Shown here piece by piece: positions 3,937 through 16,785 of a stretch of DNA of 32,000 nt (positions within the stretch are counted from its first letter, which is position 1; every line of letters starts with the position of its first letter). A program made the translations under genes and the position numbers. Under the pieces are notes generated by a model, which was not told where the DNA came from, did no database searches, and saw only the letters and a list, made by a program, of their open reading frames with translations. This DNA is from Trichodesmium erythraeum IMS101 (GTDB lineage Bacteria > Cyanobacteriota > Cyanobacteriia > Cyanobacteriales > Microcoleaceae), in NCBI RefSeq assembly GCF_000014265.1, contig NC_008312.1, forward strand, positions 6,750,001 through 6,782,000, in the 5' to 3' direction.

Positions 3937-6696
3937 ATGAAAATAAGAAATTACATAATCATTGCAATTAGTGTCATTCTTTTAGTTGTTTTTTCCCTTT
4001 CTCGAACTTTAGTTCACTTATTAACTGAAGCATGGTGGTTTAATACGGTTGATTTTGCTAATATTTTTTGGACTAGATTAAATTGGCAAATATTTCTGTG
4101 GGTAGGTGCATTTGTTATTTACTTTTTGTTTCTATGGAGTAATTATTGGATAGCTGAAAAATTGACAAGCGATCGCTCCTTTAATATTTTATTAGGAACT
4201 GAATTAGCTCCCTACAGAAATATTTTTGTGAAAATAATTTTCCTTGTCAACATTACTTTGATATCTTTAAGCGCAGCCACAGCTACATCTCCAGCTTGGG
4301 AAACTTTTTTGAAATTTTTAAATGCTGTAGATTTTCCAAATCAAGATCCAATTTATCAACGAAACATAGGTTTTTACATATTTAGATTACCCTTATATGA
4401 AGGAATAAAAGAGTGGCTATTTACTCTGGTTTTCGCTGGTTTAATTATTAGTATCATAGTATATGCTTTGAAGGGTAAATTTACCGCTGGGCGACAATGG
4501 CAAAATTTTTTAACAGGTTCAATTAAAACTCATATTAGTCTCCTACTGGCAGGGGTGACAATTTTAATTGCAGTAGGATTTTGGTTTGAACGTTATGAAT
4601 TACTTTTTGACTCTAATGGAGTAGTTTTTGGGGCTGGATACACAGACGTTCATGCTAAACTTTTTGCCTATTGGGCCATGGCAATAGTGGCATTATTATT
4701 AGCAGTAGTTTGTGTACTTTCTGTTTGGAAAAATAACATTATTTGGCCAACTTATGGAATAGTTATTTATATAGTTTTATTGGGATTATTTAATGTTTTA
4801 TATCCATGGTTTCAACAGAAATTTATAGTTAATCCTAATGAACTACAAAAGGAAAAACCATACATAGCAAATAATATTAAATTTACCCGTGAAGCCTATG
4901 GTTTAGATAATGTAGAAACTAAAAGTTTTCCAGCTAAATTTGAGTTAGATAGTCAAACATTAAAAAATAATCAAGGCACAGTTCGCAATATTACGCTTTG
5001 GGATTATAGACCACTTCTCAGCACCTATCGTCAACTTCAAGAAATGCGGCTTTACTATCAATTTAATGATGTAGATATTGACCGTTACACTATTGATGGT
5101 AACTATAGACAAGTAATGCTTTCTCCAAGGGAAATGGTTTATTCTCAAGTTCCTAGAAAAGCACAAACTTGGGTAAATAAACATTTAAAATATACTCATG
5201 GTTATGGGTTAGTAATGAATCCTGTAAATGAAGTAAAGGCAGATGGTTTACCGGTTTTATTTATTAAAGATATTCCACCAGTTTCTCAGGTAAATCTTCA
5301 GGTAAAAGAACCTGCTATTTACTATGGAGAAAAAACTGATACTCATATTTTTACGGGTATGAGTACTGAAGAATTTGATTATCCTCGGAGTGGTGAAAAT
5401 GCTTTTACTTTTTATAGTGGTACGGGGGGAGTTCCAGTAAATTCTTTATGGCGAAAACTTGCCTATGCTTATGACTTAAGCAGCATTAATATTTTAATTT
5501 CTGGCTACTTTACTGACAATTCAAAAATTCACTACTATCGAAATATAAAAGAAAGAGTAAACCAAGTTGCACCCTTTTTAAGATTTGATAATGACCCTTA
5601 TATTGCTTTAATTGATGGAAAAATTCAATGGATATTAGATGCTTATACAGTGAGCGATCGCTATCCCTATTCGGAACCACTTTATCTGAGTAATAATGCC
5701 CGGGCAATATTAAATAGAGGTAACATTGAGCGAATAGCTAGGGGAAATGTTAATTATATTCGGAATTCTGTGAAAGTTATGGTTGATGCCTACAACGGTA
5801 CGATGAAGTTCTTTGTAGTAGATGAAAATGACCCAGTACTAAATACTTACCGCAAAATTTTCCCCCAGTTATTTACAGAAAAATCGGCAATTCCAACTAA
5901 TGTTAAAGCCCATTTTCGCTACCCCTTAGACTTATTTAAAATTAAAGCTCAAATGTATTTATCATATCACATGAGCAACCCTCAATTATTTTATAATCAA
6001 GAGGACTTATGGAGGTTTCCTACAGAAGTTTATGAAGATAATAAACAATTAATGGAACCATACTATTTAATTATGCGTTTACCAGAAAAAAAGGGTGAAG
6101 AATTTGTTTTAATTTTGCCATTTACTCCAGTTAATAAAGATAATATGATTGCCTGGATGGCAGCAGAATCAGATGGAGATAATTATGGTAAATTATTGCT
6201 ATATGAATTTCCTAAACAAAAGTTAGTTTATGGTCCCAGTCAAATTGAAGCTCGCATCGACCAAAACCCAAAAATATCCCAACAATTAACGTTATGGAGC
6301 CAAAAAGGTTCTAAGGTAATTCGAGGAGATTTATTAGTAATTCCTATAGAGGAATCATTAATGTATATAGAACCAATTTACTTAAGGGCTGAACAGGGAG
6401 AATTACCAGAATTAAAGAGGGTAATAGTTGCTTATGATAAAGAGGTTGTAATGACAGAAACTCTCAGTAAATCTTTAGAAACAATTTTTGGTATGGAAGT
6501 TAAACAACCAGAAGTTAAAGTTACAGAGAAAACCCCAGAAACAAAAAATATTTCTGAGTTGATTAATTCAATAGTAGAAGCTTATAGTCAAACTGAAGCA
6601 GCAAGACGAAAAGATAATTGGGTAGAATATGGTAAGTCTAAACAAAAGTTTGAACAGCTACTTCAACAGTTAAAAAAGCAAACAGAAAGTAATTAG
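3937..6696 (+). CDS. UPF0182 family membrane protein
   Basis: 919-aa ORF. The N-terminal third has about 7 hydrophobic helices and is followed by a large soluble domain with blocks such as KYTHGYGLVMNPV, QWILDAYTVSDRYPYS and DLLVIPIEESLMYIEPIYL. Size and architecture fit UPF0182 (COG1615). Confidence 0.92.
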   Translation: MKIRNYIIIAISVILLVVFSLSRTLVHLLTEAWWFNTVDFANIFWTRLNWQIFLWVGAFVIYFLFLWSNYWIAEKLTSDRSFNILLGTELAPYRNIFVKIIFLVNITLISLSAATATSPAWETFLKFLNAVDFPNQDPIYQRNIGFYIFRLPLYEGIKEWLFTLVFAGLIISIIVYALKGKFTAGRQWQNFLTGSIKTHISLLLAGVTILIAVGFWFERYELLFDSNGVVFGAGYTDVHAKLFAYWAMAIVALLLAVVCVLSVWKNNIIWPTYGIVIYIVLLGLFNVLYPWFQQKFIVNPNELQKEKPYIANNIKFTREAYGLDNVETKSFPAKFELDSQTLKNNQGTVRNITLWDYRPLLSTYRQLQEMRLYYQFNDVDIDRYTIDGNYRQVMLSPREMVYSQVPRKAQTWVNKHLKYTHGYGLVMNPVNEVKADGLPVLFIKDIPPVSQVNLQVKEPAIYYGEKTDTHIFTGMSTEEFDYPRSGENAFTFYSGTGGVPVNSLWRKLAYAYDLSSINILISGYFTDNSKIHYYRNIKERVNQVAPFLRFDNDPYIALIDGKIQWILDAYTVSDRYPYSEPLYLSNNARAILNRGNIERIARGNVNYIRNSVKVMVDAYNGTMKFFVVDENDPVLNTYRKIFPQLFTEKSAIPTNVKAHFRYPLDLFKIKAQMYLSYHMSNPQLFYNQEDLWRFPTEVYEDNKQLMEPYYLIMRLPEKKGEEFVLILPFTPVNKDNMIAWMAAESDGDNYGKLLLYEFPKQKLVYGPSQIEARIDQNPKISQQLTLWSQKGSKVIRGDLLVIPIEESLMYIEPIYLRAEQGELPELKRVIVAYDKEVVMTETLSKSLETIFGMEVKQPEVKVTEKTPETKNISELINSIVEAYSQTEAARRKDNWVEYGKSKQKFEQLLQQLKKQTESN

Positions 6697-6738
6697 GGTT
6701 TACTACTCTTTGTCTTTTTTTAGGAGTAGGAGAATAAG

Positions 6739-6770
6739 TAGGGATATTTTGATTAAAATCCCTATTTTTT
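6739..6770 (+). terminator. rho-independent terminator after UPF0182 gene
   Basis: Stem TAGGGAT (6739-6745) pairs with ATCCCTA (6758-6764) around a 12-nt loop. It is followed directly by TTTTTT (6765-6770), 43 nt after the stop codon. Confidence 0.6.
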
Positions 6771-7081
6771 ATTTCCTATTCTCTGAAAAAATAGGAGATT
6801 TTTTTTGTCTAATTTTTAGAAATATTACTTCTACAATTAGGAGAATATCTGCTCAAAGGAAAGACTGTTTCAGACTATAAAAATTAGATATTAGCAGCAG
6901 CTAAAAATGGTGTATCTATTTTGGAATAACTATGATAGTAATGGTTAATGTTTCCTATTTTTTTCAAAAAATTAGGTTATCCATAGGTATATTATATTCT
7001 GTGATTATATGACTAATATCAGGAGTTAGTACTTCCCAACTTTTACACTGATTTTCTGATATTTTTGATGATGATTTAATA

Positions 7082-7110
7082 TTGACTTTTGTTGGAGATG
7101 TAGATATAAT
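7082..7110 (+). promoter_or_regulatory. near-consensus sigma70-type promoter
   Basis: TTGACT (7082-7087), an exact 17-nt spacer, then TATAAT (7105-7110). It lies about 310 nt upstream of the next + strand start at 7422. Confidence 0.3.
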
Positions 7111-7421
7111 TTTTAATTGCTGTTTGACTCCAAACTATTTTTATGATAAGCATTCATCCATTATTTATTAGCTATTGCTTTTGGTTTTAGATAACAGTTT
7201 GTTTAAACCCTTTTCTCATCCCTAAGATATCAAACCTAATTACTGAATGCTGAGTTTATAATTAATTATAGCAATTTTCATATTAGTTGGGTACAAAATT
7301 ATAGGTTTTAAGGAACACAATTACTGGTAAAATAGCAGTAACCTGATATCATTACTGAGTTATTTTATAAACAAAATAATGATAAATTAAAAATTAAAAC
7401 TGATAAATTAAAACTGATATT

Positions 7422-8327
7422 ATGTTATTTGTCTTAGCTTCTATAACCTCAAACATAGTAGGTAGTATTTTTCTGTTGACTGGTATTGCTAAAGTTATAG
7501 AACCTTGGAAATTTGCCCAACATATTACTAAACTTAATTTAGTAAATCCTAAGTTAATAATACCTGTTGCTTTAACATTTACTGCTATTGAATCAGCTTT
7601 AGGAGTGGCTTTAATCTTAGGAGTTTTTCTGAACCTAATAATACTTGTAAGTATTTTATTATTATTTGGTTTATCAATACTCACTTACTGGAGTACATCA
7701 ACTGGTAAAACAACAGACTGTGGCTGTTATAATGGTTTGTTTGAAATTACTCCTACCCAAAGTTTAATTCTGAATGCTATTTATATTTTTCTGTTAATAT
7801 TCGCTGAATTTTTTGGTAAATATCAACCTACTATTTTCTGGCAATGGCTAGTGGTATTAATAACTTTGATAACTAGCTATGCTTTGGCTGCTGGTTCCCT
7901 AGAATACATACAAGAAAATGGTCGTCCTTATATTGATTTTACTCCATTACAAGAAAACCGGATGTGGCAAATAGAATGGCTAGGAGAGGATTCAAAATCT
8001 TTAATGTCTGGGTCTGTAATTGTGGTTTTTATGAGTCCTGAATGTTCTCAATGTAAACATTGGTTAAGTCTTTTGAAATTGGCACAATTGCAAGATAATT
8101 TACCAGCAATAGTGGGATTAATAGATACTGAAAATCTTCAAATAGGACAAAATTTTGTAGATAGATATTTTTTGAATTTTCCTGTTGTTGCAGTGGATAA
8201 AAGGTTGTATAAAAAATTGAAGATAGAGGTAGTACCTACTGCGGTTCTTTTGAAAGATGGTGTTATTCAACAGAGATGGATAGGGTTAATGCCGATGTGG
8301 TTTATTAATAAGATTAATCAAGGGTAA
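7422..8327 (+). CDS. MauE/DoxX family redox-associated membrane protein fused to a thioredoxin-like domain
   Basis: The N-terminal 160 aa are polytopic, with a MauE-like start (GSIFLLTGIAKVIEPWKFAQHI) and a CGCYNG motif. The C-terminal domain has the thioredoxin-fold signature VIVVFMSPECSQCKHW (CxxC) and a VVPTAVLL block (cis-Pro region). Confidence 0.85.
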   Translation: MLFVLASITSNIVGSIFLLTGIAKVIEPWKFAQHITKLNLVNPKLIIPVALTFTAIESALGVALILGVFLNLIILVSILLLFGLSILTYWSTSTGKTTDCGCYNGLFEITPTQSLILNAIYIFLLIFAEFFGKYQPTIFWQWLVVLITLITSYALAAGSLEYIQENGRPYIDFTPLQENRMWQIEWLGEDSKSLMSGSVIVVFMSPECSQCKHWLSLLKLAQLQDNLPAIVGLIDTENLQIGQNFVDRYFLNFPVVAVDKRLYKKLKIEVVPTAVLLKDGVIQQRWIGLMPMWFINKINQG

Positions 8328-8619
8328 ATAATTACAAAATTAGCTTAAAGTTAACTCATACCGTTTCACAGAAGTCATACATTAATAGCACTTTTGAAAT
8401 TGATGAAGTACATCATGATAACCAAAACCTTATATATTCTTACTAATTCTTAAAAACTTTTCTTTCCCTATATTGAGGATGAGAAGTTCTTCCAGGATCT
8501 CAGTAGGAGGAGTGACAACACTATCCTCCTGCTGAAAGCCACAGAGACTCCTGTCAACATTCTCCAAAGTGTAAGCATTCAGACGGAAAGTTTACAGCTG
8601 AGAAATCAAAACTATAGAC

Positions 8620-9363
8620 TTATTTACCTGAATATTTATCCACAGACAGCAATAAACCATGCCCATCATCCTCTTCTACATACCATAACAACTTAAGAGT
8701 AGTCAGGTCGAAATGTGCTGCTAACTTTGACATTACCTCTAAATATAGCGGGAAGCGTTCATTAAACACCCTATAAAAAAAGACAAACTCCCCCCCAGGT
8801 ACTAATACTCGCCCTACCTGCTCGATCGCCCGAAACACTAGATCGTCATTTCTTAATATTCCCATTTCATAGGAGTCTGCATTAATAGGGCGATCAATAG
8901 AACGACTAGGAAAAGGCATAAATGCTAGATCGTAAGATTTGTCTGCTTCTCCCACACACAAATTTTGTACTTTGACCTCATCTTGTTCTCGAATTAGGGG
9001 ATTATTTTTGAGAGGCATAATATTCGGATGAAGATCCGAAAAAACTACTTTATTGCTGTCTTTAAATAGGCAACACAAACCAAGAACTCCAGAACCGCAT
9101 CCAAGATCGAGTACCTTTTTTCCCTTAACATTAATTATTTGATTCAAAATACCGCTCATAAAAGCTTGAGCAGCTATACCGCCATAAGGGTTAAAAACTC
9201 CTTGAGGAACTAAAACATTAAAAATTGGTTTATCTTGAAATAAGATCGTAATTTCTCGGTCTTTTGATGAAAGTTCTTCGTGAAATTTTAGATAATCTTT
9301 TCGGTCGTATTTGAGTACTTCTTCCTCTTGAAGAATAATTTTAACGTCTTCTTGTCGAATCAT
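8620..9363 (-). CDS. class I SAM-dependent methyltransferase (MTS / small-domain type, atypical motif IV)
   Basis: 247-aa ORF with an ATG start. SAM motif I is KVLDLGCGSGVLGL and the acidic motif II is VVFSDL. The position where PrmC/RsmC-type enzymes carry NPP[FY] reads YDLAFMPFPS. Confidence 0.85.
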   Translation of the reverse strand: MIRQEDVKIILQEEEVLKYDRKDYLKFHEELSSKDREITILFQDKPIFNVLVPQGVFNPYGGIAAQAFMSGILNQIINVKGKKVLDLGCGSGVLGLCCLFKDSNKVVFSDLHPNIMPLKNNPLIREQDEVKVQNLCVGEADKSYDLAFMPFPSRSIDRPINADSYEMGILRNDDLVFRAIEQVGRVLVPGGEFVFFYRVFNERFPLYLEVMSKLAAHFDLTTLKLLWYVEEDDGHGLLLSVDKYSGK

Positions 9364-9681
9364 TTTAAGTTCTTTTACCGGATTAAATTATTAAATTAGA
9401 ATATACAGCATATTTCAGACTAACATACTACAAATGACAGGATAAATATCTTGGGATTTCTTCCTATTTTATGGCTCATTCTTTTAATCTGTAAAGACAT
9501 TGCATTTAACCTAACTACATATTTTATAAAATAGTTAATAGATCGCAACTTACCCATAGATTGTAATATTTTATCGCTAGGGTTTTATCTCCAACCCCTA
9601 CAGTTTTCTTTTATAAATTATGAGAATTAGTATATCTAGCTCATAACTTGACAAACTGCTCTATACATTGATATAGCTCGA

Positions 9682-10485
9682 TTAACTCTTTTGACAAAGA
9701 TAAAACCACCATCCAATCTCCTCATTGTTGACAGCATCCCTAGTTTTTTCATAAGCAATACTTCGCTCTGGAAACTCCTTTTGAAATCGCTTTGCTTGAA
9801 TACCATAAAACTTTTTCATATGGGGGGATAAATCTAAAGAATCTAATATTGTAAAGCCTGCTTTTTCCAGATAATTTTTATAATCGTTAGGAGAAAATAA
9901 CTGACTGATTTGCATCCTCTCATAGACATATTTTAAAGTAGAATCAGTGACTTGGGAAACTAGGGTTACTAAGTCATCAAATATTAAAATTCCACTTTTA
10001 TTTAAAAGGCGATAAAATTCTCTTAAAGTGAGTTCTCGTTCGTGAATATGTAAAAGAGTTCCTTGACTCCAAACATGAGTAAAATAGCCATCTGAAAAAA
10101 CTAAATTTGTTGCTGATGCTTTCTTAAAAGAAAGGTTAAGATCGGGAAAGCCTGCCGCTTTCTTTTGAGCATTATTCACATGAGTTTGGCTAATATCTAT
10201 TCCTACAACTTCGCAGTTAGTTTCATTCCCTAAATAAATAGCCGTGTTACCATTTCCACAACCAACGTCAAGAACGCGAGATTTACAACATATTTTACTT
10301 TGATTTAACATATATTCGTTCCAGCGATCGCTAGCTTGAAATAATTCTTCTTCGTGATCGGGAGCGTCTAAATTATCAAAGTATCCCCAATGCTTACTAC
10401 CATCTGGGTTCCAAGGAACTTGGTATTTAATTTCTACTGTATTATAATAATTTTCTGTATCGGCATCCGTGAAATTTTTTTTCAC
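9682..10485 (-). CDS. class I SAM-dependent methyltransferase (Methyltransf_11-like, small-molecule type)
   Basis: 267-aa ORF with a GTG start at 10485, preceded by AAGGAGA with a 6-nt spacer. Motif I is RVLDVGCGNGNTAIYL, followed by VVGIDIS. The N-terminal YYN...W(G)YF segment is laid out like glycine/sarcosine-type and other small-molecule N/O-methyltransferases, a resemblance judged by eye only. Confidence 0.88.
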   Translation of the reverse strand: MKKNFTDADTENYYNTVEIKYQVPWNPDGSKHWGYFDNLDAPDHEEELFQASDRWNEYMLNQSKICCKSRVLDVGCGNGNTAIYLGNETNCEVVGIDISQTHVNNAQKKAAGFPDLNLSFKKASATNLVFSDGYFTHVWSQGTLLHIHERELTLREFYRLLNKSGILIFDDLVTLVSQVTDSTLKYVYERMQISQLFSPNDYKNYLEKAGFTILDSLDLSPHMKKFYGIQAKRFQKEFPERSIAYEKTRDAVNNEEIGWWFYLCQKS

Positions 10486-11181
10486 CTTTGATCTCCTTTG
10501 ATTTCTTAAAATTTTGTAACTACTAGAACTTTGGATATTAGAGCAGTTTTAGAGGGGTTAGTTATTTGAAAATTCTCAAGTTTTAGGAAGTTTTGACATT
10601 TTTTAATCTTACTATTAGGTTAACAGAATTAGAGTTTAATATAGTTAGGTGATTTCTATGTATACTTAGTTTTAGGAATAAAAAAATTATTAGATCATTA
10701 AAGCAATTTAATTGTATTCATTTCAAAAATTTAGTCACTTTTTGAGAATATATTTGAAGGGAATGATTAATGGGTAATATTAACTACCATCAACTTTATT
10801 ATGCCTTAGTCTTTCTTTTTTTTCAATACTTTTATTCCTTATTTTTTTTATGTCTCAATAGTTATACTTTTTTTTATAACAAACCAGTTAACATAATGTT
10901 AAGTTTTGTTATAAAGAACATTTATTTTGCAACCTTATAAATATAGCATGAACCTTGAAAATTTGTATAAAACTTTCAGAGCTTATATCTGGTTTTTGAA
11001 TTGTTACATTTTATTAATTATTATTCAAATGACCTAAACTCTATATCCTCTAAGTTCTTTCACAAAAATTATAGACTTTACTTAATTTTTATTCCTTTTT
11101 TTTGTCAACTTAACTTGCTTTATATACTTAGAATATATAAACTATAAACATCAAAAAAAAATAACCAGGGAAAAAAAGGTA

Positions 11182-12732
11182 ATGACAATTGATACAAAGA
11201 ATCAAACTATTGGTTTGGTTGAATTACCTCAGTTGAAGCTGTCTGATCCAGAGGGTAACGATTTTTATTCCTTACGGAAGTTTGAACCAATTATTAGTAA
11301 GCAAATTTTAATATCAAATCTCCAAGCAGGAGGATTTAAAACTAAATTTATAAACCTTCGAGATGGAGATTATGTAGAAAATTATGGACACATAACTTGG
11401 AGAGGAATTGAGCTCAGTAAAAATTACTGTGGTGTTGATATCAAGAGCATAGACCCAGAAAGTTGTGAAATCTGGTGTATAACAGTTAATTTTACATTAT
11501 ATCGTGAAATAGCAATGATGCTCTTAAAGCACCTAGCAAGCAAAGGTAAAGCAGTAGTTGTAGGTGGTTCCGATCCTTTTGCTGCTCCTGAAGTTTATCT
11601 TCAAAACGGTGCAGCAGTAGTTGTTAAAGAAAAATCCGGTGCTGCAAATTGGCCGCTATTTAATTATCTCCTAGGAAAAGGTTCAAAAGAAGCACTGACT
11701 GGTGTAATTTTGGCTGATGGAACTGAGTATCGGAGACCAAGGGTTCCCCTACAACCAGAAGAGTGGCCTTTACCTTCTGTAGAAGTGGCAAGAGAATGTT
11801 TGGGAACCCAGTATTGGATGGACCCGTTTCCGGAAGAATTAAAGCCTATTGGCGCTATATTTCCTGATATGGGTTGCGATCGCCACTGTGATTTTTGTCA
11901 AACTCCCACTTACGGTACAGGATATCGCCGTATGACACCCAAAAGAGTAATGGAGTGGCTAGATGTACTCTGTGAAGCAGGAGCTAAATCAGTAGTTAGT
12001 CTCTCCGATCAATTCTTGGGGCGGACAATTTTCCCTGGTGGCCGAGAAGAAATTCTAGAAATTATGCAAGGAGTGCGAGATCGGAACTTAGCAGTTCTCT
12101 GGCCGAATGGTCTAGAACTGAGAAAAATGACCATGGGACGTGGGCATAGTGGTAAAAGAGAAGATTTAACCCCTGATGAAGAGGTTATCCAAGCAATTTA
12201 CAGTTGGGATGGGCGAAAAGGAACTCTTGCCGGTTATCTTCCTGCGGAACGACCTATTTTTGGACGGGAATCTTATGCTAAGTTAGTTCCCTGGCAGCAA
12301 CATAAACGAATTGTGCGGACTATTGTACAAACTGGGGTTCCTATGATTAGCTATGGGGTAATTATTGGCTTGCCGGATGATGATGAAGAGGCGTTGTTGA
12401 GACTCGAAGAGGCCTTATGGGAAGTATATCATGAAGTAAAGGCAATTAACCCATCAATCATATTTCAGGTCAGTCCCTTTGTTATTTCTCCAATATTGGG
12501 AACACCACAGGGGGAGACAATTCGTAAATCTGGTCTGCTGCGGTTTGAGGATCCAGCACTTTTTGCTGGATTCTGGACCGCAAGTGTTGATACGAAACAT
12601 TTGAGTTACGAGGAAGTATCTGATTGGCAGTTTCGTTTAGCCCGGGTTGGGGATTCAAAAAACCTGCAAATTCCTCAAAGATTTAGAACTTTGTCTACAG
12701 GGGGAAAGGATAAAGTAGCAGTACCGGTATAG
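11182..12732 (+). CDS. radical SAM protein with N-terminal B12-binding-like (Rossmann) domain
   Basis: 516-aa ORF. The radical SAM cluster motif is CDRHCDFC (CxxxCxxC) within FPDMGCDRHCDFCQTPTYG. The preceding domain, with KGKAVVVGGSDPFAAPEVYL, resembles the B12-binding domain of class B radical SAM enzymes. There is no Cys-rich SPASM/twitch region downstream. Confidence 0.9.
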   Translation: MTIDTKNQTIGLVELPQLKLSDPEGNDFYSLRKFEPIISKQILISNLQAGGFKTKFINLRDGDYVENYGHITWRGIELSKNYCGVDIKSIDPESCEIWCITVNFTLYREIAMMLLKHLASKGKAVVVGGSDPFAAPEVYLQNGAAVVVKEKSGAANWPLFNYLLGKGSKEALTGVILADGTEYRRPRVPLQPEEWPLPSVEVARECLGTQYWMDPFPEELKPIGAIFPDMGCDRHCDFCQTPTYGTGYRRMTPKRVMEWLDVLCEAGAKSVVSLSDQFLGRTIFPGGREEILEIMQGVRDRNLAVLWPNGLELRKMTMGRGHSGKREDLTPDEEVIQAIYSWDGRKGTLAGYLPAERPIFGRESYAKLVPWQQHKRIVRTIVQTGVPMISYGVIIGLPDDDEEALLRLEEALWEVYHEVKAINPSIIFQVSPFVISPILGTPQGETIRKSGLLRFEDPALFAGFWTASVDTKHLSYEEVSDWQFRLARVGDSKNLQIPQRFRTLSTGGKDKVAVPV

Positions 12733-12814
12733 CAATAAGTTGTAGAGGTCTAGATTGTATTTTGCTCTCAAGAGTTGATTTATTACTCTTTTACTATTAG
12801 ACCTCTCCAAAAAT

Positions 12815-13252
12815 GCCAATTTGGCAAGAGCGGGGTAAGGGTTTGAGAGCCTTTTCTGGATATATATAGAGTTGTCGGCTTTGGTGAAAGAACGGAAACA
12901 AGGTGCAAACATCGGTAAAAAAAACTATCAAAACTTTACCCCAATACCTCCCTATAAGCTAATTCAACAGATAACTTATAAATGTCAACTAGCTGGGCTC
13001 AAAGTCATTGAAACGGATATTGTTACACCAGTAAAACTTCTGCAATTGATCTTGAGCTACTAGTTAAACATAAAATTTCTGGGGGTAAACGAGTCAAACG
13101 TGGTTTATTCAGAAGTGCAACTGGTATAGTCATTAATGACGATATCAATTGCAGTCTTCAAATTTAAGACAAGAAATTCCTAGAGGTATTTACTGCCGAG
13201 GGAATAGTGAGCTGTGCCGCACAGCCTGTATTGGTTAATCCAATATCAAGAT
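12815..13252 (+). pseudogene. tnpB: 3' fragment of an IS200/IS605-family tnpB (RNA-guided nuclease) gene
   Basis: Frame 1 reads LVKERKQGANIGKKNYQNFTPIPPYKLIQQITYKCQLAGLKVIETD. After a frameshift the sequence reads KTSAIDLELLVKHKISGGKRVKRGLFRSATGIVINDDINCSLQI*DKKFLEVFTAEGIVSCAAQPVLVNP. This matches the conserved C-terminal RuvC region of TnpB (GK..NQNF..IP; GKRVKRGLFRS; INADINGS). The N-terminal two thirds are absent, and one frameshift and one in-frame stop are present. Confidence 0.6.
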
Positions 13253-13432
13253 AAAAGCTGTTAGGATTTTCTACAGTTTTTTTCGTACGGTAGATTTTAT
13301 TTAACCCATAAGTAACCTGGGAGAAGCAATACATATTTCCTCACTATACTATCTGCCACAGAAATTTAAAAATCTCTGTATTGTTTTCTCTTACTACCTA
13401 ACCTTAAGATCCGTTTTTGGAATTTAAGCTTT

Positions 13433-13469
13433 ATCAAAAAGTCAATGAATCCTGAATAGACTTTTTGAT
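13433..13469. terminator. perfect 11-bp hairpin downstream of the KamA-family gene (possible bidirectional terminator)
   Basis: ATCAAAAAGTC (13433-13443) pairs with GACTTTTTGAT (13459-13469) around a 15-nt loop. It lies 81-117 nt beyond the minus-strand stop at 13550. There is no clean U-tract after the stem, so the call is tentative. Confidence 0.35.
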
Positions 13470-13549
13470 CAGCTCAGTTCCTGTATTTTTGAGGAAAAAT
13501 AATAAATTGACATAAATAACCGTAGATTTATCAAAACGGTCATAAACCA

Positions 13550-14887
13550 TTAGAATAACTTTTGTCGGGTCAAAATCTCCTCAAGCTGGTTTTCATAGAA
13601 AAATTTATCTTCCCCAAAAGCAGGTTTGAGATTGTTCAACCAAGTAGCATCTGGATTAAAACTAGCAAAAAACGGTCGCTTACACCAGTCAGGGTCGCGA
13701 CCTTGCAAAAACGACAATACAAAAACCTTTTCCCCAGCAATTTCAGCAACACCATCAATAGCTACTTTTCCGGGCAAAGCTGACATTAATGGACCTCTTA
13801 TAGTTCTTGCTAAACCAGACACTTGTTTTACAGCCTCTCGGTAAATTTCCAAAACCCGCACCAAAGGAATTTCAAAATATTTCTTTGCACCTGTTTGTCG
13901 CTCCACAAACATATAATAAGGAATACAGCCTAAACTCACCTGCATTTGCAACATTTTTGCCCAAGTCTCAGCAGAATCATTGATATGGCGTACCACGGGC
14001 GCTTGAGTCCTAATCTGGGCCCCTGTAGAGCGAATCCGTCGAATTGCTTCAGTTGCAACTGGAGTATCCAGTTCCTGCCAATGTTCATAGTGAGCCATTA
14101 TTGCTAAATGTTTCCCCCGTTTGACTATTTTTTCAAATAAGCGCAAGGTATTATCAGCATCTTCATCGGTGACATAACGATAAGGCCAGAAAGAAATTGA
14201 TTTTGTCCCTATCCGAATTGTTTGGATGTGATCGAATTTAGCTTCCAGTAAAGGATCGATGTAAAGACTCAGTTGCCTTGCTTTCATAGTCATTGGATCC
14301 CCACCTGTAAATAAGACATCCCTGACTTCCTGATGTTGCTGTAAATATTGTTGAAACATTCCTGATTCACGGGTGGCAAATTTTAAACCTTCAAGCCCCA
14401 CAAATTGTGGCCAGCGAAAACAGAAAGTACAATAAGCATGGCAAGTTTGCCCCGCAGTCGGAAAAACTAAAACTGTTTCGCGATACTTGTGCTGAATTCC
14501 AGGAACAGGTTCGCTATTAAAGGTAGGAACGTTGTGCTGTTTTTGTCCTGACGGATGAGGGTTTAGTTGCTGACGAATCTTGTTAGCTGCCTGTTTTAAA
14601 ACAGTTTTAGGAGCATTTTCTGTTAAAAGCTGAATAATATGGTTATAGTCTTTTGACTCTAACATTTCTGGATGAGGGAAGGTCAACCGAAACATTGGAT
14701 CGTTAGGAACATTATTCCAATCAATTAATTGTTCTAATATATAATTATTAGTTAGGAAGGGTAAAACCTGAGCAACAGCTTTAATACCTAGGCGATCTTG
14801 CTCGGAGAAATTACTTAATTGGGGTATAGAATCTAGATTTTTAGCCCCATAAAAACGTATTTTTAAGGATTCAATTTTGCTACTCAT
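13550..14887 (-). CDS. KamA-family radical SAM protein (lysine 2,3-aminomutase-like)
   Basis: 445-aa ORF with an ATG start. The diagnostic KamA block is HKYRETVLVFPTAGQTCHAYCTFCFRWPQF (CxxxCxxC), followed by DVLFTGGDPM and the IPYYMF block. Confidence 0.92.
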   Translation of the reverse strand: MSSKIESLKIRFYGAKNLDSIPQLSNFSEQDRLGIKAVAQVLPFLTNNYILEQLIDWNNVPNDPMFRLTFPHPEMLESKDYNHIIQLLTENAPKTVLKQAANKIRQQLNPHPSGQKQHNVPTFNSEPVPGIQHKYRETVLVFPTAGQTCHAYCTFCFRWPQFVGLEGLKFATRESGMFQQYLQQHQEVRDVLFTGGDPMTMKARQLSLYIDPLLEAKFDHIQTIRIGTKSISFWPYRYVTDEDADNTLRLFEKIVKRGKHLAIMAHYEHWQELDTPVATEAIRRIRSTGAQIRTQAPVVRHINDSAETWAKMLQMQVSLGCIPYYMFVERQTGAKKYFEIPLVRVLEIYREAVKQVSGLARTIRGPLMSALPGKVAIDGVAEIAGEKVFVLSFLQGRDPDWCKRPFFASFNPDATWLNNLKPAFGEDKFFYENQLEEILTRQKLF

Positions 14888-15303
14888 AAGTTTTACAGCA
14901 CTTTCCTAGTTTATTAGTTATTACCATTATAACTTTTTAGCAGTTTTTAAGATAACACCATAATAAGCAAAAATGATTTATTTGAGGTTAATGCACAGGA
15001 ATTTTTTAACACAATTGATGTTATAAAATGTAAGTTCTCTCAACTTATACCCAACCCATTTCTGTATCCATCGCCTTTTTGAAATTTCCCTCTAATCTTT
15101 CTAGCTTCTGAACTTATTTTGACCTTACCTCCATAATAATAGCTCTGTTTAAACCCGATGAACATATCAAATATTTAGATGATTTTAATAGCTACTCAAT
15201 AAATATTACATATTATTTTTATTATAGGTGCAAAGAGATAAAATCTTAATCCCCAGTTTCTATTGTTCATCTCCATATACTATTTTCCCAAGTATAACAC
15301 CAA

Positions 15304-16785
15304 TTAATCTTTAACCAAAATACAACCTTTTCTTCCTGGCAAATATAACTCTAATTTACTAGCTTCATCTCCTCCTTGCCAGGAAATTTTACAACTACCA
15401 TAAACAACTTTATTAGGTTGAGATTTAAGCTTATTAAAAATAACATTTACTTTTGCTGCTTCTATACCAATGTTAACAGCTACAATAATTTCTTCCTCTT
15501 CTAAAATACGAGCAAAAATATAAACATTTCCCTCGGCAAACAACACTTCGTAATTACCAGTGCGCAAAGCTGAATATTCTTTTCTAATAGCAATTAACTG
15601 TTTATGATATTCCAGAACTTCACGATCCCATTTTTCAGTAGTAGGAAAACTACGACGACAGTCAGGGTCAAACTTACCCGGTAAACCTACCTCATCACCA
15701 TAATAAATACTTGGTGCTCCGGGAAAAGTCATTAACAACAGAGTCGCTAATTCAACACTTGCTTTATCCCCTTTAGCAATACTCAAAACTCTAGCTGTAT
15801 CATGACTATCTAATAAATTGAGTTGAGTTAATTGAATTTCCCAAGGGTAAAGTTGCAGTAACTCCTGCATTTTTTGACCGTATTCAACAGCAGATATAGC
15901 CGGATAAGCTACATAGTCACGGCCTTCAATTTGCTCAAGATCCACACGATCGCCTACAGTAAAAGCAATAGTTGGACCAGTAAATAAGTAATTCATCACT
16001 CCATCAAACTGAGTACCATCCAACCATTGTGCGCAGTTACTCCAGACTTCACCCACAATATATGCTTCTGGGTTAATAGCCTTAACGCGATCGCGAAATT
16101 CTTGCCAAAACCCGGGAGTCTTCACTTCAAAAGGTACATCCAACCGCCAACCATCAATACCAAATTTTAACCAATATTCTCCAATTTCCATAATGTATTC
16201 TTTGACCTCTGGGTTGTCATGATTAAAAACAGGTAAAGCACGGTTATCTAACCAACCCACATAATTAGCAGGTAAACTACCATCGTAAGCAGACAGAGGC
16301 CAATTTTCTATTTTGAACCAATGCAACCAGGGAGAATAAGGACCGTTTTCCAGGATATCGTTAAAGAAATAAAAACCCCGGCTAGCGTGGTTGAAAACTC
16401 CATCAAGAACCACTTTAATATTGCGATCGTGAGCAGTATCTATTAATACCCTTAAAGCCTCATTACCTCCTAAAATTGGATCGACTCGATAATAGTCATG
16501 AGTATGATAGCGGTGGTTACAGGTTGACTGAAAAATTGGTGTAAAGTAAATAGCTGTGATACCAAGTTCCTGAAGATAGTCAAGTTTTTTAATGACACCC
16601 CAGAGGTTCCCTCCTTTATAACCTTGAGGAGTAGGATATTCATCCCAAGGTTCTAGACTGCTGGGATACCAACCTTTGTCTATTCCTTTTCCAGTTTCAG
16701 TCGTTGGTTGAGCTTTAGCAAAACGATCTGGAAAAATTTGGTAAAATACAGCCTGTTTAACCCATTCTGGTGTTTGAATTTGCAT
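15304..16785 (-). CDS. glycoside hydrolase family 13 protein (alpha-amylase / neopullulanase-like)
   Basis: GH13 conserved regions are present: DGVFNHAS, GIDGWRLDVP, IVGEVW and LLDSHDTAR, plus an N-terminal FYQIFPDRF. The track ORF begins at TTG 16854. The first ATG (16785) gives MQIQTPEWVKQAVFYQIFPDRF and is preferred. Confidence 0.92.
   Translation of the reverse strand: MQIQTPEWVKQAVFYQIFPDRFAKAQPTTETGKGIDKGWYPSSLEPWDEYPTPQGYKGGNLWGVIKKLDYLQELGITAIYFTPIFQSTCNHRYHTHDYYRVDPILGGNEALRVLIDTAHDRNIKVVLDGVFNHASRGFYFFNDILENGPYSPWLHWFKIENWPLSAYDGSLPANYVGWLDNRALPVFNHDNPEVKEYIMEIGEYWLKFGIDGWRLDVPFEVKTPGFWQEFRDRVKAINPEAYIVGEVWSNCAQWLDGTQFDGVMNYLFTGPTIAFTVGDRVDLEQIEGRDYVAYPAISAVEYGQKMQELLQLYPWEIQLTQLNLLDSHDTARVLSIAKGDKASVELATLLLMTFPGAPSIYYGDEVGLPGKFDPDCRRSFPTTEKWDREVLEYHKQLIAIRKEYSALRTGNYEVLFAEGNVYIFARILEEEEIIVAVNIGIEAAKVNVIFNKLKSQPNKVVYGSCKISWQGGDEASKLELYLPGRKGCILVKD

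Follow-up and report, generated by a model that had tools for sequence, protein, structure and literature searches.

Do four neighbouring genes for S-adenosylmethionine (SAM)-dependent enzymes of Trichodesmium erythraeum IMS101 belong to one pathway, and if so, what might this pathway make? The question is raised by a stretch of 32,000 nucleotides (NCBI RefSeq assembly GCF_000014265.1, contig NC_008312.1, positions 6,750,001 to 6,782,000 of the forward strand), which as a whole is called the window below. Its positions 8620-14887 contain four intact open reading frames (ORFs), Tery_4387 to about Tery_4391. An initial annotation had suggested that they may encode a pathway to a methylated metabolite derived from a beta-amino acid, e.g., a betaine-type compatible solute. 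The analysis described here revealed that the four genes are a genuine conserved gene cluster. On balance, we lean towards the view that this module converts a non-basic amino acid into a beta-amino acid that is N-methylated and probably quaternary, with one extra radical step performed by a class-B-like radical SAM enzyme, and that the product is most plausibly a compatible solute in marine filamentous bacteria. The four genes are the following:

8620-9363, minus strand: MTA (Tery_4387, Q10WJ8), 247 amino acids, a divergent class I methyltransferase with an MTS domain.
9682-10485, minus strand: MTB (Tery_4388, Q10WJ7), 267 amino acids with a GTG start, a class I SAM methyltransferase (Methyltransf_11/25/31).
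11182-12732, plus strand: the radical SAM enzyme rSAM (Tery_4389, Q10WJ6), 516 amino acids, with the motif GCDRHCDFC.
13550-14887, minus strand: a KamA-like pyridoxal phosphate (PLP)-dependent radical SAM 2,3-aminomutase-like enzyme (Q10WJ5), 445 amino acids, with the motif CHAYCTFCFRW.

An ORF check reproduced the reading frames, motifs, coordinates and orientations that had been described in the initial annotation. The genes of MTB and rSAM are divergent, and those of rSAM and the KamA-like protein are convergent on a segment that bears a TnpB relic. The KamA-like protein is 100% identical to ABG53379/WP_011613705, and its locus tag must be Tery_4390 or Tery_4391, because the next gene, GH13, is Tery_4392. 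All four genes are under purifying selection, with ratios of nonsynonymous to synonymous substitution rates (dN/dS) of 0.075-0.24 (rSAM 0.075-0.14, KamA-like 0.14, MTA 0.14-0.23, MTB 0.18-0.24).

The rSAM family was aligned and one genome per species of GTDB was then scanned, which yielded 76 loci. All loci were searched with the four window proteins, and every neighbouring ORF was clustered. The KamA-like protein, MTB and MTA were present at every locus that had an rSAM at least 77% identical to that of the window and enough flanking DNA. The full module was found at seven distinct cyanobacterial loci:

L009, an uncultured cyanobacterium: collinear, on one strand.
L010, Roseofilum halophilum: rearranged (divergent/convergent), still adjacent.
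L011, Symploca SIO1C2: full module.
L012, Oscillatoria SIO1A7: full module with four rSAM copies.
L013, Moorena bouillonii: collinear same-strand operon (4445-14060) with three rSAM copies.
L015, Symploca SIO2E9: collinear same-strand operon.
L017, a tar-biofilm cyanobacterium: rearranged (divergent/convergent), still adjacent; the closest relative of the Trichodesmium locus.

The modules have one to four rSAM paralogues each. The gene order varies among the genomes and adjacency is retained; MTA and MTB are adjacent in every locus of the window type. The contig of a Trichodesmium metagenome-assembled genome (MAG; L008) stops before the position of the KamA-like gene, and that of Symploca SIO2E6 (L025) starts inside the rSAM gene and is uninformative. 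In Hormoscilla (L014) the rSAM gene was found alone, and an MTA homologue is located on another Hormoscilla contig. Outside of the cyanobacteria, the gammaproteobacterium Ca. Thiomargarita nelsonii (L065), a giant sulfur bacterium, has contiguous genes for an MTB-like protein, MTA (40% identity) and KamA (53% identity), and two rSAM paralogues are located about 7 kb from this unit. The named carriers of a window-type module are mostly marine, as judged from the record names. Conservation of the gene combination in other genomes was the main refutation test of the initial annotation, and the combination was indeed found elsewhere. With all four families side by side at seven other cyanobacterial loci and in a gammaproteobacterium as well, chance falls far short of explaining the clustering.

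It could still be argued that common SAM-enzyme families were juxtaposed by chance in a rearranged region scarred by insertion sequences. The genes are interrupted by the TnpB relic and by long AT-rich spacers, they are transcribed in three directions in Trichodesmium, and the KamA-like protein was not co-detected with the other three. However, several of the loci listed above contain the four families as a single operon, and MTA as well as the rSAM clade are specific to the module. The conservation analysis effectively refuted a chance juxtaposition, to which we assign next to no probability.

MTA is the signature gene of the cluster. Its family comprises 35 clusters among 5.8 billion proteins, and nearly all of them are from cluster-bearing genomes, mostly of Trichodesmium, Okeania, Hydrocoleum, Moorena, Oscillatoria SIO1A7, Geitlerinemataceae and Hormoscilla. 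The homologues of MTA are often on contigs that are equal in size to those of the KamA and rSAM homologues. A distant homologue with 38% identity (P0273) has an unrelated gene context. The rSAM family splits into clades that track the module type, and the clade of the window has 18 members, which were found only in modules with KamA and MTA or on contigs that end early.

What reaction could the KamA-like enzyme catalyze? Its match to the KamA family model TIGR00238 scored 139.3 bits, compared with a cut-off of 199.2, and it was below all NCBIfam equivalog cut-offs of characterized aminomutases (AblA 110.5 versus 525, EpmB 96 versus 369, arginine 2,3-aminomutase 95 versus 600, glutamate 2,3-aminomutase 86.6 versus 650). 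C149, C153 and C156 together with R158 (C-H-A-Y-C-T-F-C-F-R) align with the motifs CSMYCRHCTR of lysine aminomutase (LAM) and CAVNCRYCFR of EpmB, and R158 is the conserved carboxylate-binding Arg after the third Cys. The PLP lysine K374, which corresponds to Lys337 of LAM, is invariant in 31 close relatives and retained in 38 of 45 divergent representatives; its counterparts in the alignment are the respective Lys of EpmB and LAM-like proteins. The column of LAM Asp293 is occupied by an invariant Arg330 in the KamA-like proteins, while LAM, EpmB of E. coli and a canonical LAM-like protein all have Asp there, and the motif 'RGPxMSxxPGK' ('RGPLMSALPGK' in the window) stands in the place of 'DAPGGGGK'.

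In LAM, Asp293 and Asp330 bind the epsilon-ammonium group of lysine, and the loss of both Asp goes along with non-basic substrates; examples are glutamate 2,3-aminomutase and alanine 2,3-aminomutases obtained by engineering. The loss of the lysine-binding Asp therefore indicates that the KamA-like protein is not a lysine aminomutase and that its substrate pocket is not of the lysine type. The public name of Q10WJ5, 'L-lysine 2,3-aminomutase', is probably a mis-annotation that has spread across cyanobacterial genomes, judging from the sequence of the pocket. The closest parallels are glutamate 2,3-aminomutases (Eam and IdnL4, the latter of which supplies beta-glutamate to a pathway) and the engineered alanine 2,3-aminomutase, in which the lysine-binding Asp are likewise replaced and the substrates are non-basic. 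As far as we are aware, Eam has a Lys/Asn pair at the Asp sites and the engineered alanine aminomutases have D-to-H/G replacements; the replacements in the window protein are, in contrast, an Arg plus Leu/Ser, and the low score given above separates it further from Eam. At an E-value of 1e-30 or lower, the subfamily comprises 316 representative clusters (50% identity). This search of representatives returned only the divergent subfamily, without the characterized glutamate or arginine aminomutases. Its scores below the cut-offs and the missing Asp place the enzyme outside of the clades with a known standalone role, membership in which the initial annotation had regarded as a possible refutation.

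The two methyltransferases differ in how much can be read from their relatives. MTA has a weak match to the MTS domain (PF05175, 27.9 bits). It contains an invariant 'VPxGVFNPY', an MTS-type GVF(N/S) element, and a degenerate motif IV, 'MPFP', compared with the (N/D)PP(F/Y) type. The AlphaFold2 model has a pLDDT of 93, and its Foldseek neighbours are almost all N-methyltransferases, which makes MTA a probable amine N-methyltransferase. MTB is a member of Methyltransf_11 (74.5 bits). Its nearest sequences in the PDB are a mix of O- and N-methyltransferases (a glucose O-methyltransferase, MitM, RebM and phosphoethanolamine N-methyltransferases). In the initial annotation an 'SDMT-like' methyltransferase had been described. 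SDMT (sarcosine/dimethylglycine N-methyltransferase, NF041675) is indeed the best NCBIfam match of MTB, but with 91.7 bits compared with a cut-off of 550 MTB is not an SDMT orthologue, and its likeness to SDMT as well as to phosphoethanolamine N-methyltransferases is distant only.

In the third type of enzyme, rSAM, Pfam detected the core motif alone (PF04055, 30.7 bits), the matches to TIGR04013 and HpnR were weak, and a comparison of the family with the PDB yielded only marginal matches to RimO and TM_1862. The AlphaFold2 model (pLDDT 88.9, pTM 0.89) consists of a Rossmann-type N-terminal domain and a radical SAM barrel. Its top Foldseek matches were AprD4, MgmA, TsrM, OxsB and CysS, which matched over both domains (TMq 0.56-0.65, E-values of about 1e-14, 12-15% identity), while MiaB and RimO were second-tier matches. 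The model thus shows a class-B-like two-domain fold, with the same architecture of a Rossmann 'B12-binding-like' domain and a CxxxCxxC barrel that is known from CysS, TsrM, MgmA, OxsB and the cobalamin-free AprD4. The relatives of the window cluster have tandem rSAM paralogues, as do natural-product clusters with class B enzymes. In contrast to this similarity of folds, the sequence identity is just 12-15% and PF02310 was not detected by Pfam in the N-terminal domain of Tery_4389. The 'B12-binding-like' domain of the initial annotation was therefore recovered at the level of the structure model, but not at the level of Pfam. A role of cobalamin is not implied by the fold, because the best match, AprD4, has such a domain without using cobalamin, and no sequence motif is diagnostic of cobalamin binding; methylation, dehydration and rearrangement are all candidate reactions. 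Of the cysteines, only C232, C236 and C239 are invariant in the family, and C206 is conserved in at least 90% of its members, which makes an auxiliary cluster unlikely. Eight Trp are invariant as well. A methylthiotransferase of the MiaB/RimO type was rejected, because the three-Cys N-terminal motif was absent and there was no match to a TRAM domain. In the literature searched, no characterized member of the Tery_4389 family was found.

These family assignments could also be read as a system for the modification of a macromolecule, e.g., EF-P, a ribosomal protein or an RNA, in which an aminomutase similar to EpmB would act together with a methyltransferase similar to PrmA/RsmC and a radical SAM enzyme similar to RimO/MiaB. 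EpmB is a member of the KamA family, the nearest families and folds of MTA are those of protein and RNA N-methyltransferases (PrmA, RlmG, METTL5, N6AMT1), and MiaB and RimO are among the structural matches of rSAM. We nevertheless regard this as highly improbable. The distribution of the module is very narrow, unlike that of translation-factor modification, and neither an EpmA-like ligase nor a target gene is nearby. In addition, the KamA-like pocket lacks the lysine-binding Asp of EpmB, rSAM lacks the cysteines of an auxiliary cluster as well as a TRAM domain, and the gene context is that of small-molecule betaine genes.

This context became apparent when the wider rSAM family was inspected, for which 67 loci of at least 9 kb were used. 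An N-methyltransferase was adjacent in 35 of the 67 loci. EgtD or EgtB was present in 26, a MurL-like protein (about 452 amino acids, no Pfam match, NF041275 136 bits) in 19, DUF427 in 16, an OpuA-type betaine ABC transporter in 15 and MscS channels in 13; one or more of these were found in 47 loci. The genes of rSAM and EgtD often share an operon (L020, L040, L056, L063), and the pairing with ergothioneine genes spans cyanobacteria, Beggiatoaceae, Crenothrix and Caldilineaceae. A Beggiatoaceae-type module (L039, L052, L065, L071) contains an MTS/HemK-like methyltransferase (295 amino acids, 'NPPT'), an Asp/Glu racemase, an MTB-like protein, a small HicB-like protein and two to six rSAM copies; it parallels the window cluster, with the racemase replacing the aminomutase. 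A recurring pattern in the rSAM family is the combination of an amino-acid isomerizing enzyme (a KamA-like aminomutase, an Asp/Glu racemase or a MurL-like epimerase), one or more N-methyltransferases, and rSAM.

Several loci of the family were observed to have further peculiarities. In L021, L022, L031, L066, L055, L063, L076, L081, L040 and L056, the rSAM gene (at about 10001-11500 in each) is co-operonic with or adjacent to genes for EgtD/EgtB, the MurL-like protein, DUF427, two MscS channels and an OpuA-type transporter. Two loci of Aerosakkonema (L003, 3361-13145; L023, 8383-18126) contain six tandem rSAM genes, which are flanked by genes for DUF3326, an Orn/Lys/Arg-type decarboxylase, an amine oxidase and OpuAC. 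Six rSAM copies are also present in L039, which is from a Pseudomonadota MAG.

In ergothioneine (EgtD/EgtB) clusters the same rSAM family is thus paired with an amine-trimethylating enzyme. In contrast to these clusters, the rSAM of the window belongs to a separate clade, and EgtD, EgtB, the MurL-like protein and DUF427 are all missing from the window. A tblastn search of the window with EgtD and EgtB found nothing, and the window was rejected as an ergothioneine cluster. Ergothioneine synthesis is not known to involve a radical SAM step, and no paper in the literature searched ties radical SAM or KamA enzymes to betaine synthesis. It is tempting to speculate, and we mean this as a tentative idea, that the metabolism of amino-acid betaines is the dedicated role of the Tery_4389 family, an uncharacterized radical SAM family of the class-B-like type whose N-trimethylating partners are EgtD or MTA plus MTB, and that the family perhaps catalyzes a reaction new for quaternary ammonium compounds, e.g., a radical tailoring of a betaine such as C-methylation. 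The product of Trichodesmium, a globally important diazotroph, would then be a new marine beta-amino-acid betaine formed by enzymes that are abundant.

The additional genes of the window-type modules were also informative. The module of Oscillatoria SIO1A7 includes a dioxygenase of the gamma-butyrobetaine/TmpA/trimethyllysine type (L012, 8296-9414; GBBH-like_N and TauD domains, TIGR02409 297 bits, TmpA 271 bits), and that of Symploca SIO1C2 includes a family III CoA-transferase. Both of them have a cupin with a weak match to dimethylsulfoniopropionate lyase, which is secreted in Oscillatoria SIO1A7, and the modules of Moorena and Symploca SIO2E9 have a third methyltransferase. These accessory genes point to a small molecule that bears a trimethylammonium group.

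The same variable set of genes also resembles tailoring functions, and the product might instead be a specialized metabolite or a tailoring unit, such as a small N- and C-methylated beta-amino acid that serves as a toxin, a signal or a building block and not as a solute. Orthologues of the KamA-like protein with 65-70% identity are located inside nonribosomal peptide synthetase (NRPS) clusters of Nostoc sp. C117 (L084), Mastigocoleus testarum (L085) and Calothrix parasitica (L006). In L084 and L006 they are accompanied by P450s and a class IV aminotransferase, whereas the companions in L085 are an Asp/Glu racemase and a TauD dioxygenase. Relatives with 65-70% identity also occur alone, and one further relative (P0278, 882 amino acids) is a fusion in which a Lys/Orn-type, i.e., siderophore-type, flavin N-monooxygenase (PF13434, 336 bits) is joined to a KamA-like domain of the same subfamily (49% identity, 'ERD' motif). 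Because of these three settings, the subfamily seems to provide one and the same beta-amino acid for several purposes, with its amine being tailored in various ways. This beta-amino acid is probably also a building block of non-ribosomal peptides. Moreover, the rSAM fold matches those of CysS, TsrM and OxsB, tandem paralogues of class-B-like radical SAM enzymes are typical of natural-product clusters, and Moorena, Okeania and Symploca are prolific producers of natural products. Against this explanation stands that no NRPS, polyketide synthase, precursor peptide or resistance gene was found beside any window-type cluster, that the intergenic DNA is not conserved, that MTA is constitutively abundant, and that the rSAM family as a whole is associated with transporters of osmolytes, with MscS channels and with the synthesis of betaines. 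All in all, we consider a specialized metabolite to be rather unlikely, though less so than the other alternatives.

Are the proteins made? Proteome data of IMS101 cultures (Frischkorn et al., 2019) contained spectral counts of 29-41 for MTA, 12-19 for MTB and 6-15 for rSAM. For comparison, the counts were 31-75 for MetK, 95-189 for NifH and 0-9 for other type-11 methyltransferases. MTA is thus abundant, and constitutively so, in culture proteomes. The cluster genes were not listed in an Fe-limitation dataset. Regarding a shared expression of the four genes, for which the initial annotation had named unrelated patterns as an argument against the pathway, co-detection was found for MTA, MTB and rSAM, but not for the KamA-like protein.

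The abundance of both methyltransferases in seawater-grown cultures raises the question whether they might be (additional) homoserine N-methyltransferases that feed homoserine betaine, while the radical SAM enzymes would serve another purpose. Homoserine betaine is the main compatible solute in Trichodesmium IMS101, the best curated match of MTB is a betaine-forming N-methyltransferase, and the genes of the homoserine betaine pathway are not described in detail in the literature searched. However, in Hou et al. (2018), who cite Pade et al. (2016) for the assignment, Tery_2447 is named as the homoserine methyltransferase and is induced at 43 ppt. In this assignment, the role is given to a locus apart from Tery_4387/4388, and homoserine betaine was rejected as the product of the cluster; the cluster probably makes something else. 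The synthesis of homoserine betaine would also not need an aminomutase or radical SAM step, and yet KamA and rSAM are kept together with the methyltransferases in every window-type locus. This explanation is therefore improbable. Tery_4387-4390 are not mentioned in the main text of the papers in the literature searched.

Returning to the favoured betaine-type beta-amino acid, we infer the following chemical steps and physiological role. The KamA-like enzyme would use its [4Fe-4S] cluster and SAM to generate a 5'-deoxyadenosyl radical and, with PLP, would shift the amino group of a non-basic L-amino acid from the alpha position to C3. The first candidates for the substrate are amino acids of a small neutral (alanine-like) or an acidic (glutamate-like) kind. 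This step is proposed because of the family membership and the conserved catalytic residues. MTA and MTB would then methylate the amine stepwise with SAM, up to a trimethylammonium group, as suggested by the N-methyltransferase-like fold of MTA, the family of MTB and the betaine-recognizing accessory genes in sister clusters. Finally, rSAM might perform one further radical step on the scaffold. The C-methylation of an unactivated carbon would be the most likely one, a weak suggestion that derives from the fold and from the tandem paralogues in relatives. The pathway to a methylated metabolite derived from a beta-amino acid that had been suggested initially is thus supported at the genomic level by the conservation, the betaine context of the rSAM family and the fold neighbours of MTA, and it also has proteomic support.

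The proposal has parallels in two known routes to compatible solutes. In the AblA/AblB system of methanogens and bacteria, the clustered genes encode a KamA-family aminomutase and an enzyme that subsequently caps the amine, so that an inert zwitterionic solute, N-epsilon-acetyl-beta-lysine, is formed. In contrast, the window cluster would cap with two methyltransferases instead of a GNAT acetyltransferase, it has the extra class-B-like radical SAM enzyme, and its aminomutase has lost the lysine-binding Asp and has a low AblA score. An AblA/AblB cluster was rejected, because an acetyltransferase, including an adjacent GNAT AblB, was absent from the window cluster and from all window-type loci. 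The second parallel is the GSMT/SDMT pathway to glycine betaine of Aphanothece halophytica and Methanohalophilus, in which two class I methyltransferases are encoded side by side and methylate nitrogen stepwise, which is conceivable for the window as well. However, MTA belongs to an unrelated MTS/PrmA-like group, and the substrate in the window is probably a beta-amino acid provided by the adjacent aminomutase. The superfamilies involved are therefore known, while the gene combination, the link between rSAM and betaine genes, and the KamA-like subfamily are uncharacterized.

Several points weigh against a compatible solute made in this way. Since members of the KamA-like subfamily feed NRPS clusters, the beta-amino acid need not serve as the precursor of an osmolyte. 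Since homoserine betaine, the major solute, is attributed to Tery_2447, a solute from the module would come in addition to it. An oxygenic phototroph would hardly be expected to rely on two oxygen-sensitive radical SAM enzymes for a high-flux solute, and the proteome tables in which the other three proteins appear do not contain the KamA-like protein, although they include the alphabetical section in which it would stand. N-methylation by MTB is uncertain, because its closest solved relatives include O-methyltransferases. Finally, a part of the synteny may reflect shared ancestry, because most window-type loci are from related Oscillatoriales.

The cluster is interspersed with and flanked by the following features, which were inspected for a possible contribution:

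7422-8327, plus strand: a MauE/DoxX-thioredoxin fusion (Tery_4386), identified with Pfam.
10486-11181, no strand: an AT-rich divergent spacer of 696 bp with 23-28% G+C between MTB and rSAM.
12872-13165, plus strand: a TnpB relic, the frameshifted C-terminus of an IS200/IS605 OrfB (Cas12f-like, PF07282).

The TnpB relic is real: when it is read across the frameshift, the cysteine-less remnant matches the TNB domain PF07282 with 32.7 bits. It occupies the place of the second (beta-type) rSAM paralogue of the relatives, and it is not part of the pathway. A DNA alignment of Trichodesmium with its closest relative L017 aligned only the four coding regions. L017 has a gene for a multi-pass membrane protein of 215 amino acids (TM215) at the place where Trichodesmium has the divergent spacer. 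Relative to L017, Trichodesmium has the four-gene core only; no remnants of the extra genes of the relatives, i.e., the second rSAM, TM215 and c24, were found in the window. The spacer contains no ORF of at least 60 amino acids and does not resemble the matching region of L017; presumably, it carries the promoters of MTB-MTA and of the rSAM gene. Sigma-70-like promoter sites were not more common in the locus than in shuffled sequence. An Rfam scan of 7000-16000 revealed no riboswitch (SAM, cobalamin or other), and its sole match was a chance U4 hit. The repeats in the locus were unremarkable, and blastn found no match of the intergenic segment between rSAM and KamA among plasmids.

The MauE/DoxX-thioredoxin fusion noted in the initial annotation is present upstream of the cluster. 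It was rejected as a cluster member, because it co-occurred in 0 of 83 loci, and so was GH13, which had 0 co-occurrences with the module in other genomes. In the proteomes Tery_4386 was barely detected (0-2 counts). An ORF of 96 amino acids at 7394-7684, antisense to the fusion gene, is probably spurious. The G+C content of the two radical SAM genes (0.39-0.44) is within the range of other conserved genes of the window (0.38-0.43) and is no signal of transfer, as had been cautioned from the outset; a horizontal transfer read from the G+C content was therefore dropped.

What would the cluster mean for the organism and its surroundings? Trichodesmium provides a large share of the new nitrogen of the oligotrophic ocean, and its methylated solutes, which are rich in nitrogen, nourish associated bacteria and enter the marine methylamine cycle. 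If the cluster makes a second quaternary amine, this would be an unrecognized pool of organic nitrogen, and there would be a new metabolite to seek in marine metabolomes, in reef cyanobacterial mats and in giant sulfur bacteria. It would also define a substrate for the large KamA-like subfamily, and it would provide a first function for an rSAM family that recurs in operons with genes of ergothioneine and betaine synthesis. With four to seven genes in all, which are collinear in Moorena, the module lends itself to a direct test of the proposal.

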